Position numbers and translations under genes: made by a program. A stretch of 57,480 bases of DNA from the NCBI GenBank assembly GCA_021780355.1, contig JAJXYX010000052.1, positions 1 to 57,480 of the forward strand, read 5' to 3'. Positions 40,159 to 47,053 of this stretch are shown here, one piece after another; within the stretch, counting starts at the first letter, position 1; every line of letters starts with the position of its first letter. Origin of the DNA: a bacterium. GTDB lineage: Bacteria > Chlamydiota > Chlamydiia > Chlamydiales > SM23-39. The notes below the pieces were generated by a model. It was not told the origin of the DNA and made no database searches. It saw only the letters and a list, made by a program, of their open reading frames with translations.

Positions 40159-41049
40159 TTATTTCCCCATCTCCAATTCTTCGGAAGAACCGATTTTTTT
40201 CTTTTGAATCAAAAGGGCTGAGCTTAAAATCAAAAGGCTGCCTATGATTTTTGTGCCAAGAAAGGATTCATTGAAGAAAAGAACGGCGAAAAGGATCGTG
40301 ACAATAGGCTCTAAGGTAAAAAGCAGAGCCGTTTGGGTTGCTCCTAAAATCTGCATCCCTTTGACAAGAAAAAAAAGGGGAATCACGGTGGCTATCAGAA
40401 CGATAAGAAAAGCGAGAAGCCACTCGGAGGGCAGTGAAGGGAAAAAGAGTTCTCCTCGAGCTAGAGCGATCAGAGAAAAGCTTGCAGCAGCTCCGCTCGT
40501 CAGATAAGCCGCTGAGGTTGGTGGAGGGATGTTTTTTGTGAAATGGGCTCCAAAGCTAAGGTAAAAAGCATAGGTTAATCCTGTTGCTAATCCGAGCCAG
40601 ATTCCCTGAAAGTTGTCCGATGAGAGAGAAACTTGTTGGAAGGGGTTGATGATCAAAAGACAGCCTAGAAGTGAAAGCAGGAGACTGATCCATTGGATTT
40701 TGCTGGCTGGTGCTTGAAAAAAAAAGCGCTGTATGAGGAAGACAAAAAGAGGGAACGTATAAAGAAGCAAAGCGGCAATAGAGGCGCCAACGTAAGCTAC
40801 ACTAAGAAAAAATAGAGACGTTTGCAGTGCATCGGCGAACATCCCCATGAGAAAACAGGCGATTTTTGTTTTGAGGGGCGAGGATTGTTTGCATGAGAAA
40901 ACTGTCCAAAGGTGAAAAATCAGAGCAGCTCCGGCAAAACGCCAAGAAAGGACTGCGTACATAGGAAGTTCATGGTCGAAAATCCATCGTCCAAAGAGCG
41001 CGACCGTGGCATAGCCACAAGCTGCTAAAAAAACATATAGCGCGCCCAT
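40159..41049 (-). CDS. DMT/EamA family exporter
   Basis: About ten TM segments in two EamA repeats; LLYTFP and LEPIVT motifs; last gene of the operon. Confidence 0.88.
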   Translation of the reverse strand: MGALYVFLAACGYATVALFGRWIFDHELPMYAVLSWRFAGAALIFHLWTVFSCKQSSPLKTKIACFLMGMFADALQTSLFFLSVAYVGASIAALLLYTFPLFVFLIQRFFFQAPASKIQWISLLLSLLGCLLIINPFQQVSLSSDNFQGIWLGLATGLTYAFYLSFGAHFTKNIPPPTSAAYLTSGAAASFSLIALARGELFFPSLPSEWLLAFLIVLIATVIPLFFLVKGMQILGATQTALLFTLEPIVTILFAVLFFNESFLGTKIIGSLLILSSALLIQKKKIGSSEELEMGK

Positions 41050-42383
41050 TACTTTTTTCTAGCTCCAATTGGAAGTTCGTTGACGAATGCAATGTTAGTC
41101 GGAATCTGTGCGCGAGGCAAATGGTTTTTCAGAAAAGAAAAGATGGATTTTTCTTCCGGCGGTTTACTTGTTTGTAGATAGGCTACGATCTTTTCGTCTT
41201 CTTGTGTGACATATGCATCTTCGATGAAAGGGATCTTTTGAAAAAGACTCTCTATCTCAGCGGGATAAATCTTTTCCCCCCCTAAACTTAAAAGGCGTTT
41301 TTTTCTCCCTAGAAAAAAGAATTGATCCCCTTGCTTTTTAACCAAATCTCCTGTGTGCAGCCATCTCTTGGTAAAAACGGCGTCAGTTTCTTGGGCGGAT
41401 CGAAAATAACCGAGCATAACGCTTGGAGTTTTGATTAAAAGCTCTTGATCTTCAGCTATTTGTGTTTCTATGGAGGGGAGAAATGTTCCGAGAGGCAAAG
41501 AGGTTTTGAGGCAGTCTTCTTGTGAAATTTTACAAGTTGCGACTCTTGGGCCTGCTTCTGTAAGTCCATAGGTGGTAAACAAAGTCAGGTGGGGCGCTTG
41601 ATGTAAAATCTTTTCGGCGAGAGAAGGGGGAGTAAAGTCGCCTCCAATGGTCAGGATGCGAGATGGGAATCGATCCATTTTTTTAGCAAGAAGCGGTGTG
41701 GCGCTGAAGACAGAAATTTCTTTCATCCAAACGAGAGGGTCGCCCGGAATAAAGGGAGGGGCGAAAAAAAGAGAGGAGCCTTGTACAAGCGAGGCCAGAG
41801 CCACAGCGACTAACCCATAACTAAAATGCAAAGGAAGCGCGCTTCCTACTCGATCTGATGCGTTCAGTTGGATTGCCTCTGCGTGGAAAGAAGCGTTGAG
41901 TAAAAGAGAGGGAAAACGGTGGAGAACTGCTCTAGGCGATCCTGTGGTTCCCGAGGTTAAAATGCCAATTTGAGCCTTTTGTTCCTGAGAGTCTAGTTCT
42001 TTTTTGCAAGACCAGGGGAAAGAAACGAGAGAGCCGCTGAACTCTTGCATCTTTGAAGAATCAAACGGGCTGCTTTGAAAACGGGGAAGAATAGCTAAGT
42101 GAGGCTCTAAATAATCAAAAAGAAGCTTGAGTTTTTCATGGCTGAAAAGGGGGCTTCCTAGAAAGACAAGAGCTCCGCTTTTCAATAGGGCAAAAAACCA
42201 CTCGAAACTTTCAATGGATCTCTCGAGAGAAAAATAGACGCGCTTGCCTTTTAAAGAGAGCCTCTTTGCTTTTTCTTCGATATGTGAAACAAATTGCGAC
42301 GCTGTGCAGAAACGGCCCTCTTCTGAGAGAATAAGCTTTTTTTCTTTGAGTTCTTTTAAAAAATGGTGAACGGGGTCGCTCAT
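41049..42383 (-). CDS. Adenylate-forming acyl-ACP ligase (AmcH/Cfa5-like)
   Basis: TSGTTGSPR, YGLTE, HTGDL, GRKKR...GGEKIYPAEIE. Confidence 0.85.
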   Translation of the reverse strand: MSDPVHHFLKELKEKKLILSEEGRFCTASQFVSHIEEKAKRLSLKGKRVYFSLERSIESFEWFFALLKSGALVFLGSPLFSHEKLKLLFDYLEPHLAILPRFQSSPFDSSKMQEFSGSLVSFPWSCKKELDSQEQKAQIGILTSGTTGSPRAVLHRFPSLLLNASFHAEAIQLNASDRVGSALPLHFSYGLVAVALASLVQGSSLFFAPPFIPGDPLVWMKEISVFSATPLLAKKMDRFPSRILTIGGDFTPPSLAEKILHQAPHLTLFTTYGLTEAGPRVATCKISQEDCLKTSLPLGTFLPSIETQIAEDQELLIKTPSVMLGYFRSAQETDAVFTKRWLHTGDLVKKQGDQFFFLGRKKRLLSLGGEKIYPAEIESLFQKIPFIEDAYVTQEDEKIVAYLQTSKPPEEKSIFSFLKNHLPRAQIPTNIAFVNELPIGARKK

Positions 42384-42820
42384 AAGCCAACAAGAGTAGC
42401 GGTGCAGCTAGTTTCTTCGACAGAAATCACGCAGACATCTGACGCCATCGAACAAACAAGCAAGGTTTCTCCTATCTTTAGAGCCTCTTCTAAAGATTGA
42501 TCGAGAAGAGCAAACGCAGGACCATGCAATCCGCAAGCCGTTGCTAAATAAGTTGCGATTGTATGAGGTCCCATTCGAATGAAATTTCCAGCTCTGACGC
42601 GCCGCTCTCTACAGGCTTCCAATACTTTTTTGTGGTGGGTCCCCCAATGAGAGGAGATGAGGGCAATGCATGCCGTATTCCATGGATCTGCCGGTTTTTG
42701 TTGTAGGTTCATAAAAGCTTGGATTGCTGAAAAAGCCAGAGGATCCGCTCGAAGGTCTTTGAGAGTTTCCGGAGGATCAGGAGGCCATTTTGCATATGTG
42801 CTTGTCGTTTTAATTTTCAT
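42380..42820 (-). CDS. Small ketosynthase-partner protein (cyclization-factor-like, AmcG/Cfa4 position)
   Basis: 146 aa; degenerate thiolase-like F..MGPHTIATYLA...GLHGPA with no catalytic motif; overlaps the KS and ligase genes. Confidence 0.55.
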   Translation of the reverse strand: MKIKTTSTYAKWPPDPPETLKDLRADPLAFSAIQAFMNLQQKPADPWNTACIALISSHWGTHHKKVLEACRERRVRAGNFIRMGPHTIATYLATACGLHGPAFALLDQSLEEALKIGETLLVCSMASDVCVISVEETSCTATLVGL

Positions 42821-46298: not shown

Positions 46299-46535
46299 TT
46301 AAGATGTTTGCTTTACCAGATCTAGGATCGTTTGAAGATTTTGAAAAGGTTTTTGTTCGGCTGTGAATTGGACAGAAAAAGTTTCTTCTAGAAAGACGCG
46401 CAGATCTACTTGATCGATGCTATCGAGCTGGAATGATTCTGTATGAGAAATGGTCGAGGCCCAATCTTTCATGAGCTCATCGCTTAAAAACGAGCGGATT
46501 TTTTCTTCAGCTTGGTCTAAAGTTATCTGGGTCAT
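46299..46535 (-). CDS. Acyl carrier protein (AmcB/Cfa1-like)
   Basis: 78 aa, acidic; LDSID phosphopantetheinylation Ser; LEETFSV; AAGGA RBS. Confidence 0.8.
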   Translation of the reverse strand: MTQITLDQAEEKIRSFLSDELMKDWASTISHTESFQLDSIDQVDLRVFLEETFSVQFTAEQKPFQNLQTILDLVKQTS

Positions 46536-46552
46536 TATAAAATTCCTTGCTT

Positions 46553-47053
46553 TTACTGTTTTTCATTTGGATCGGTTGCGATTGAGATATTGCAAACGAT
46601 AGCATGATTCAATTCTTGGATCATATTGGGAGCGATTCGAATCAAAGAGTGCTTTTCTCCGCCGCCTCCATATACTTCGTCTTGTTCGAATATTCGGGCG
46701 TCCACATAGACTTGGGTCAGTTGATCTCCAAGTCCTATCGGGGGTGTGCCTCCAGTGTGGTATCCTGTGACAAGGAGAGCCTCTTCTGGGGAAGCGAAAC
46801 TATGTTTTTTATATCCGGGAGAGAGGCTTTCAAACTTTTTCCAATCAATTCGATCGACTCCACGCAAAATCGCGGCAACAAATGTTTTGGGTTTTCCTAC
46901 GCCGATGATGCAGGTTTTGATGATTCTCGATTCGGCAATTTGCAGCACTCTTGCGGCATCTGCTGTTGTGGGCATTTCTTGCGCGAGAGGCAGGTATTGA
47001 ATTCTTTCGGGATGAGCCCGAACGAGGGTTTGAAGAGGAGTCAAAGCAGCCAT
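46553..47053 (-). CDS. YbaK/EbsC/ProX family aminoacyl-tRNA editing deacylase
   Basis: AARVLQI...IIKT, TGYHTGGTPPIG, YVD, VYGGGGE. Confidence 0.85.
   Translation of the reverse strand: MAALTPLQTLVRAHPERIQYLPLAQEMPTTADAARVLQIAESRIIKTCIIGVGKPKTFVAAILRGVDRIDWKKFESLSPGYKKHSFASPEEALLVTGYHTGGTPPIGLGDQLTQVYVDARIFEQDEVYGGGGEKHSLIRIAPNMIQELNHAIVCNISIATDPNEKQ

Follow-up and report, generated by a model that had tools for sequence, protein, structure and literature searches.

The chlamydial DNA analyzed here, contig JAJXYX010000052.1 of assembly GCA_021780355.1 (57,480 nucleotides in full, designated the window), carries on its minus strand, at positions 40159-47053, an operon for a YbaK-like deacylase, an acyl carrier protein (ACP), a class III aminotransferase, a thioesterase, an AmcE-like hot-dog enzyme, a ketosynthase (KS), a 146-residue KS partner, an adenylating ligase and an EamA transporter (Table 1). 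Six of the eight junctions were overlaps (-8, -32, -20, -4, -4 and -1) and the remaining two were gaps of 17 and 62 bp, and all nine frames were open in an open reading frame (ORF) check, as the original prediction, made from the nucleotide sequence, had described. The earlier domain assignments also matched Pfam (tRNA_edit, Aminotran_3, 4HBT, FabA, ketoacyl-synt, AMP-binding, EamA), in which the ACP and the 146-residue protein were without any match. The operon, from an environmental chlamydia, probably encodes a divergent form of the cispentacin (AmcB-H) assembly line that stands alone, with a free product that would be exported by the EamA protein and against which the deacylase would protect the producer.

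Table 1. The nine genes of the operon, from its upstream end (positions in the window).
Product	Position	Strand	Basis
INS-superfamily (YbaK/ProXp-like) trans-acting aminoacyl-tRNA deacylase, 166 aa	46553-47053	-	PF04073, 79.5 bits
Acyl carrier protein (AmcB/Cfa1-like), 78 aa	46299-46535	-	NCBIfam AmcB, 24.3 bits; alignment
Class III PLP aminotransferase (AmcC-like), 468 aa	44830-46236	-	Aminotran_3; AmcC model, 237 bits
Hot-dog thioesterase (AmcD position), 132 aa	44439-44837	-	4HBT/YbgC-type matches
Hot-dog-fold AmcE/Cfa2-like enzyme, 192 aa	43892-44470	-	Pfam FabA; AmcE model, 85.8 bits
Ketosynthase (AmcF/Cfa3-like), 364 aa	42817-43911	-	Pfam ketoacyl-synt N + C; AmcF model; trees
KS partner, remote AmcG/Cfa4 'cyclization factor' homologue, 146 aa	42380-42820	-	HHalign; predicted complex
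Adenylate-forming acyl-ACP ligase (AmcH/Cfa5-like), 444 aa	41049-42383	-	AMP-binding; AmcH model, 203.8 bits
EamA (DMT) transporter, 296 aa	40159-41049	-	PF00892, two repeats, 120.8 bits

Comparison with the amc and cfa gene clusters

Hibi et al. (PMC10698177; the papers cited here by identifier are represented by the portions available) found in vitro that AmcH loads 2-oxoglutarate on AmcB, that AmcF-AmcG extend once and cyclize, that AmcE decarboxylates and FabI reduces, that AmcC aminates with ornithine or lysine and that AmcD releases cispentacin. The chlamydial operon has the seven core functions of amcB-H from the Streptomyces amipurimycin cluster in the same order, including the LDS motif of the ACP, a KS with a catalytic cysteine alongside a small non-catalytic partner, an AmcE-type hot-dog enzyme and an adenylating ligase; it too lacks a reductase, FabI and FabD being encoded elsewhere in the genome (PMC10698177). 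The order ACP, aminotransferase, thioesterase, hot-dog enzyme, KS, partner and ligase was that of an amc-type locus in Kitasatospora, as predicted. All seven genes of the amcB-H definition were found in the one cluster, AmcD and AmcG being recognized by weak or profile-level homology together with position. For five of the nine genes the top NCBIfam model was that of an Amc protein (AmcB, AmcC, AmcE, AmcF and AmcH), in each case under its cut-off.

The predicted relatedness to cfa1-5 also held, since the proteins were 42% (Cfa2), 33% (Cfa3) and 32% (Cfa5) identical to those of the coronafacic acid loci of Pseudomonas syringae and Azospirillum B510, and Cfa4 was a remote homologue. The operon differs from the coronafacic acid cluster in having neither the type I polyketide synthase (PKS) genes cfa6/7 nor the Cfl ligase. 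By the scheme of PMC10698177, a cluster of the coronafacic acid type has five core genes, lacks amcC and amcD and is usually followed by a type I PKS; the operon has an aminotransferase and a thioesterase, and is therefore of the cispentacin type.

Several features distinguish the operon from amcB-H (PMC10698177), 1) its proteins are about 30% identical, form a sister clade and score below the curated cut-offs, 2) it is stand-alone, not inside a larger nucleoside or nonribosomal peptide synthetase (NRPS) cluster, 3) it also encodes an INS-family deacylase and an exporter of the EamA type, 4) its KS partner has just 146 residues and 5) its host belongs to an obligate-intracellular phylum missing from the lists in the available portion of that paper. 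The original assignment to the cispentacin pathway class was thus refined to a sister clade that shares about 30% identity with Amc/Cfa and reaches none of the cut-offs, with a pathway that likely works like the cispentacin cassette and to which the deacylase and exporter have been added.

The ketosynthase and its partner

The KS carries Cys128, His257, Lys287 and His292, which we take to be its catalytic residues; the intact Cys-His-His set read earlier corresponds to Cys128-His257-His292. The margin of the AmcF model was small (204.8 bits, with the second-ranked model at 187.5). In trees, the KS belonged to a well-supported clade of its own that was sister to AmcF/Cfa3. The branch uniting this clade with AmcF/Cfa3 against FabF-like sequences had support of 99/93 in a tree of 40 sequences, a Shimodaira-Hasegawa approximate likelihood ratio test (SH-aLRT) value of 94 when aryl-polyene, HR-type and aromatic outgroups were added (27 sequences), and a value of 96.8 in a 19-sequence tree from which P0154, P0169, P0172, P0200, P0203, P0205, P0206 and P0208 had been removed. 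Approximately unbiased (AU) tests on the 19 sequences rejected a grouping with the aryl-polyene KS (p 0.014) or FabF (p 0.0013), within a sample, for trees and tests alike, outside which the ladderane KS lay. The KS and the ligase grouped with AmcF/Cfa3 and AmcH/Cfa5, respectively, and the contrary outcomes named beforehand did not arise among the sequences sampled. A match on a Bacillus cereus plasmid was found to be an HR-type II-like cluster, not a cispentacin cluster, and was kept as an outgroup of the KS tree.

A homologue of AmcG/Cfa4 is the gene diagnostic of this type of cluster. The partner belongs to a family of 44 members, whose profile matched Cfa4/AmcG-type proteins in HHalign (96.9%, E 1.7e-10). 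Three AmcG/Cfa4 proteins headed an HHalign search of 203 ORFs, with an E of 0.61 for the next match, and the AmcG model NF058659 matched 31 of the 44 family members. The partner is shorter than the AmcG/Cfa4-type proteins (176-184 residues), and in structure comparison it folds like the N-terminal half of a KS. The predicted complex of the KS and the partner scored 0.96, while the best of three controls scored 0.00; the mark applied to this score was reached by 116 of 157 solved pairs and by 2 of 215 mismatched pairs. The runs agreed in at least 97% of contacts, the partner had a predicted local distance difference test (pLDDT) value of at least 92, and the predicted interface included KS residues 122-130, around Cys128. 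On this modeling the KS and the 146-residue protein are predicted to form a heterodimer, and the partner role first proposed for the small protein gained support from both the remote homology and the complex.

The remaining enzymes of the assembly line

For the ligase, the AmcH model outscored MenE (154 bits), and a tree of 12 sequences placed it with Cfa5/AmcH-like proteins (95/95). His167 was present in all six sequences of the subfamily and Amc/Cfa and in none of six controls, Arg280 in the same six and in one of the six controls, and the motifs S-Y..VA, TIGG and GPRV were common to the window protein and AmcH/Cfa5. The ligase likely loads 2-oxoglutarate on the ACP. A structure model of the ligase, computed from a single sequence, had a pLDDT of 40 and was not used.

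The AmcE model scored higher than FabZ (60.7 bits) for the second hot-dog protein, whose identity to Cfa2 extends across 105 residues. In the alignment, residue 83 was Gln in all eight sequences of the subfamily and Amc/Cfa and Glu in both dehydratase controls; the Glu at this site has a catalytic role in FabZ. The original call of a FabZ-like dehydratase was given up, because AmcE itself acts as a decarboxylase rather than as a dehydratase (PMC10698177), and the Gln that it has in place of the FabZ Glu recurs in the window protein. The AmcE-like protein is likely to be a decarboxylase as well.

The second-best model for the aminotransferase, after AmcC, scored 128 bits, and in a 15-sequence tree its sister group consisted of actinobacterial AmcC-like proteins (99/97, subject to a warning for long branches). 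It carries Asp271 and Lys298, presumably its catalytic residues. The ACP exceeded generic ACP models (23.9 bits) with AmcB by a negligible margin, and its Ser39 was aligned within the LDS motif. The thioesterase was 26% identical to the product of the gene at the same position in the Kitasatospora amc-type locus.

Helper genes and the proposed pathway

The source genome encodes AcpS, FabD and FabI in trans, on contigs C6, C82 and C1, respectively, as well as SucA and an isocitrate-dehydrogenase-family protein. No ketoreductase was found in the operon with Pfam, and there were no type I PKS, NRPS or tailoring genes in or beside it. The ligase found just two paralogues genome-wide and no run of NRPS modules was present, which fits a free product.

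The pathway can be outlined with steps carried over by homology from the in vitro work of Hibi et al. (PMC10698177). AcpS would prime the ACP at Ser39, the ligase would adenylate 2-oxoglutarate and then load it on the ACP, and FabD would provide malonyl-ACP. The KS and its partner would carry out a single C2 extension followed by closure of a five-membered ring, the AmcE-like enzyme would decarboxylate the ring intermediate and the housekeeping FabI would reduce the ring. The aminotransferase would then aminate the ACP-bound ketone, the thioesterase would free the acid and the EamA protein would export the free amino acid. Hibi et al. reported no common FabI substitute around amcG clusters in the available portion of PMC10698177. 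In one related metagenome locus (L020:4354-5139), a FabI-like reductase gene lies directly behind the AmcG-like partner gene, as a pathway with enoyl reduction would need. The product is thus proposed, with good probability, to be free cispentacin or a close cyclic beta-amino acid, and cispentacin itself is likely.

The deacylase, prolyl-tRNA synthetase and exporter

The deacylase is a member of the INS superfamily that falls under the strict YbaK cut-off (TIGR00011, 60.1 against 153.25 bits), and its nearest solved relatives are APE2540 and 2cx5 rather than YbaK. Lys46 and GGxPP are kept in the cluster copies. Of 61 related genomes, just the two cluster carriers had a close orthologue. The gene lies ahead of the ACP gene in the window and in metagenome loci L014, L015 and L026, and behind EamA in L016; none of the three reference loci (Kitasatospora, P. 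syringae and Azospirillum) showed a YbaK gene. The prolyl-tRNA synthetase (ProRS; G000 C18:3689-5164) is of the archaeal/eukaryotic type and had no tRNA_edit match in a profile search of the genome. The sole other tRNA_edit match was the C-terminal part of a 603-residue class II synthetase (C62:49913-51724); it was ruled out as an INS domain of ProRS since it is fused to a synthetase read as AspRS.

Cispentacin has been described as resembling proline and as inhibiting fungal ProRS to a moderate extent (PMC11229370), and the ribosome accepts (1R,2S)-2-aminocyclopentane-1-carboxylate (2-ACPC) on an engineered tRNA (PMC11122139). In Streptomyces cattleya, FthB, likewise a stand-alone INS-family deacylase inside a non-canonical amino acid cluster, protects the producer from its own amino acid, and clustered deacylases are documented resistance markers (PMC13149037). 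The substrate of FthB is an alpha-amino acid on tRNA(Thr), whereas that of the window enzyme would be a cyclic beta-amino acid, probably carried by tRNA(Pro), the two proteins being compared by description only; neither cispentacin nor chlamydia is mentioned in the available portion of PMC13149037. By analogy with FthB, the product would be a proline mimic mischarged by the eukaryote-type ProRS that lacks editing, and the deacylase would strip it from the tRNA. The original description listed the YbaK gene without giving it a role. Given that its occurrence follows that of the cluster and that an editing domain is missing from the ProRS, the YbaK-like protein likely gives self-protection. The EamA gene was present in three of 13 related loci and in the genome of the same genus, and its product likely serves as the exporter.

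Genomic setting

The source genome (1.96 Mb, 44.7% GC, 96.7% complete, 105 contigs, with the window as contig C79) is chlamydial, the ribosomal proteins of the window clustering at 90% with proteins named Chlamydiales, and its four full-length nucleotide transporters indicate a host-dependent life. The operon has 45.5% GC and a tetranucleotide distance of 0.87, compared with a median of 0.91 across 233 windows. A single unbroken 7099-bp contig had the depth of the right flank in three of four read runs, which may be source data and not independent; the four belong to one study labelled as a mine drainage metagenome, and three are possibly the source of the assembly. Orthologues of the operon genes are present in a second species of the genus (G001). 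The ordinary composition, the unbroken contig at flank depth and these orthologues establish that the operon is native to the genome, neither a chance arrangement nor a product of mis-binning. A promoter scan gave four sites, with 8.1 expected by chance.

The surroundings had been described as decayed, which applies to one neighbor. A heme-copper oxidase-family gene at 39400-39984 persists as a fragment (39520-39984) with two in-frame stops and is truncated by a palindromic repeat; it presumably resembles a quinol NO reductase. The AbiE pair, the NUDIX gene and the GH3 gene are open, and the description was overstated to that extent. The AbiEi/AbiEii pair (type IV toxin-antitoxin, 37919-39399), 760 bp downstream of the operon, is intact and low in GC. 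Palindromic repeats of about 167 bp lie on both sides of the operon (39977-40108, 47184-47350 and 47918-48084), and the third copy is read in frame within the 5' part of the GH3 ORF (47892-49700). The repeat has 96 copies of at least 120 bp over 47 contigs of the genome, and a role of the flanking copies as mobilizing ends was set aside for this reason.

Distribution and selection

The cluster was present in two of 400 scored Chlamydiota genomes, the source genome and G001, which are also the two carriers among 103 genomes of the family; G045 was unscored, so these tallies are floors. A scan of named genomes with a single aminotransferase matched only the same-genus genome. Metagenome contigs L015 and L016 hold eight and nine of the nine genes at 42-70% identity. 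In a search confined to Chlamydiota, the genes flanking them had their best matches at 69% in a different family and at 54% in a different genus, and more chlamydial carriers are therefore likely. Thirteen of 20 metagenome loci, at 44-80% identity, were examined, and 12 of the 13 have further cluster genes beside the aminotransferase gene. One locus (L021:9995-11383) has a clade aminotransferase (50%) with no other cluster genes, between very long NRPS-like ORFs. One record of 530 residues (P0194) combines EamA and KS domains in one protein and is either a fused gene or an artefact of gene calling.

The aminotransferase clade (40-86% identity) extends to Burkholderia gladioli, B. ambifaria, three Psychotria leaf-nodule symbionts, Pseudomonas viridiflava, Pseudoalteromonas and a metagenome-assembled genome of Acidobacteriota, with actinobacterial AmcC-like proteins dropping to about 30%; plasmid searches gave no member of the clade. 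The aminotransferases of the named carriers (B. gladioli, B. ambifaria, Ca. B. humilis, Ca. B. pumila, Ca. P. calva, P. viridiflava and Pseudoalteromonas) were 46-52% identical to that of the window. Ketosynthases of the KS clade occur in B. ambifaria, B. gladioli and Ca. P. calva, at 43-47% identity. The order of genes in this sister clade is known from metagenome contigs alone. The clade aminotransferases of the three Psychotria symbionts, which are obligate (P0071, P0129, P0130, P0190), are accompanied in Ca. P. calva by the KS, and it is possible that the clade enzymes make an undescribed metabolite in the Psychotria symbiosis.

The ratio of nonsynonymous to synonymous substitution (dN/dS) was 0.04-0.13 at a dS of 0.9-1.4 for seven genes compared with G001, and 0.037 for a NUDIX control. 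The operon is under strong purifying selection. Recent horizontal transfer was rejected, given the ordinary composition and a dS of about 1 to the sister species.

Related systems in the literature

The myxopentacin (mxp) cassette of the Myxococcaceae (PMC13445942) is also a seven-gene cispentacin cassette outside the actinomycetes; it adjoins NRPS genes and its unit is built into a peptide, whereas there is no NRPS at the window operon. Chlamydial biosynthetic surveys report NRPS-like, RiPP-like, type III PKS and phosphonate genes (PMC9666466). A keyword search of 12 supplements of PMC9666466 gave no match, and the main text of bioRxiv 2022.09.27.509721, in the portion available, contained neither PKS nor polyketide. 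The files available for PMC10698177, excluding an alignment PDF, had no entry for Chlamyd*, YbaK, gladioli, ambifaria, viridiflava, Pseudoalteromonas or Candidatus, and the control, Bacillus cereus, was found. No paper in the open literature joined cispentacin and Chlamydi-, coronafacic with Chlamydi- gave unrelated papers only, and none joined leaf nodule and coronafacic. No product or description of the sister clade was found in the open literature, which leaves out subscription papers. The original statement that no such cluster has been described in Chlamydiota agrees with these searches of the open literature.

Alternative explanations

Several observations weigh against the assignment of the operon to the cispentacin pathway, 1) the references were two cfa loci and, for Amc, a Kitasatospora locus that has the amc gene set but lacks annotation, not the characterized Streptomyces proteins, and identity to the Amc/Cfa-type references was just 26-42%, 2) the equivalog cut-offs for AmcB, C, E, F, G and H were not reached, the NCBIfam scores lying far below them (score/cut-off: AmcB 24/80, AmcC 237/600, AmcE 86/140, AmcF 205/325, AmcG none/80, AmcH 204/370), 3) in NCBIfam the thioesterase matched no Amc model, and the 146-residue protein alone matched no family model, including AmcG, 4) the partner fold is common to small aryl-polyene chain-length factors and hence not discriminating, and the score of the modeled complex may partly reflect likeness to solved pairs of a KS and a chain-length factor, 5) both KS clades are on long branches, with support slightly under the star mark when all outgroups are included, 6) ligase residue 165 is Arg in all three AmcH/Cfa5-type proteins and Ser or His in the window clade, the A3 loop of the ligase differs from the AmcH/Cfa5 type and about 12 residues are inserted in the AmcE-like protein, 7) the G001 ligase gene (L007:2402-3470, C173) has an in-frame stop at codon 189, from decay or sequencing error, 8) the deacylase was seen in four of 13 related loci, most contigs ending inside the cluster and 9) the literature passages covered held no evidence of any synthetase charging cispentacin onto tRNA. 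As a consequence of the scores, the operon proteins are not equivalogs of the characterized Amc proteins, and the system is called a variant. The changes in the ligase and the AmcE-like protein mean that the substrate or ring size may differ, and the stop in G001 that the pathway can apparently be lost.

Resemblance to amc could be superficial if the operon were an aryl-polyene-, ladderane- or fatty-acid-type cluster that modifies lipids. The small KS margin and the chain-length-factor-like fold of the partner would suit such a cluster, but the AU tests (with the ladderane KS outside the sample), the lack of a ketoreductase in the operon and the joint occurrence of AmcC-, AmcE-, AmcG- and AmcH-type signatures in amc order make it scarcely credible. 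The same chemistry could also lead to a different product, through another 2-oxo-diacid starter (2-oxoadipate, for example, would give the six-membered 2-aminocyclohexane carboxylate), a different stereochemistry, or a halt at a ring that is still unsaturated or carboxylated. The deep split from Amc/Cfa in all three trees, the lost Arg165 and altered A3 loop, the insertion in the AmcE-like protein, the shorter partner and Amc scores uniformly under cut-off all speak for a different product. This is nevertheless unlikely, as the ligase retains His167 and the three motifs like AmcH/Cfa5, the complete seven-gene set is kept in order, and the presence of a dedicated FabI gene in L020 points to a saturated ring.

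The fate of the amino acid and the function of the deacylase also admit other readings. The characterized cassettes feed larger products, such as amipurimycin and the myxopentacins (PMC10698177; nine of ten myxobacterial cassettes are near NRPS genes, PMC13445942), and in an assembly of 105 contigs, with a ligase stop in the sister species, the amino acid might be a building block for a larger metabolite made elsewhere or the operon might be silent. The lack of genes for NRPS or tailoring enzymes within the operon or next to it, the mere two ligase paralogues in a 96.7% complete genome, the amino-acid-type exporter at the end of the operon and the strong purifying selection make either case very unlikely. 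Alternatively, the pathway may operate as proposed while the YbaK-like protein is a housekeeping editor of Ala- or Cys-tRNA(Pro), or a cleaner of mis-loaded ACP. A ProRS without an INS domain creates a need for such an editor, and the reference loci of Kitasatospora, P. syringae and Azospirillum have no YbaK. On the other hand, the close orthologues are confined to the two cluster carriers among the 61 genomes, the gene stays with the cluster though its place shifts, and clustered deacylases are documented as resistance markers (PMC13149037), so that a housekeeping function is possible, if doubtful.

Biological significance

The cispentacin-type reading places a variant of the pathway in a phylum for which no report was found. 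The cluster defines a sister branch of KS-cyclization factor systems missing from the published AmcG lists in the portion available. Cyclic beta-amino acids are valued as peptide building blocks, and this branch, with members among cultivable Burkholderia and Pseudomonas as well as among obligate plant symbionts, may yield new ones. The deacylase, if its proposed function is true, would extend cluster-encoded tRNA proofreading to beta-amino acids.

A broader conjecture, offered tentatively and judged somewhat unlikely, is that the carrier chlamydiae, an environmental lineage of at least two families, are defensive symbionts that would secrete a free cyclic beta-amino acid against fungi or other eukaryotes attacking their host, by means of a hitherto unrecognized sister branch of the cispentacin pathway that the Psychotria leaf-nodule symbionts also have, and that the YbaK-like protein would be the first natural beta-aminoacyl-tRNA deacylase, compensating for a eukaryote-type ProRS that does not edit. 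On the cispentacin-type reading itself, a host-dependent bacterium would gain a chemical defence for, or a weapon against, its host cell, and a full pathway for an antifungal amino acid that is already known would offer a concrete and inexpensive test of whether chlamydiae chemically defend or poison their hosts.

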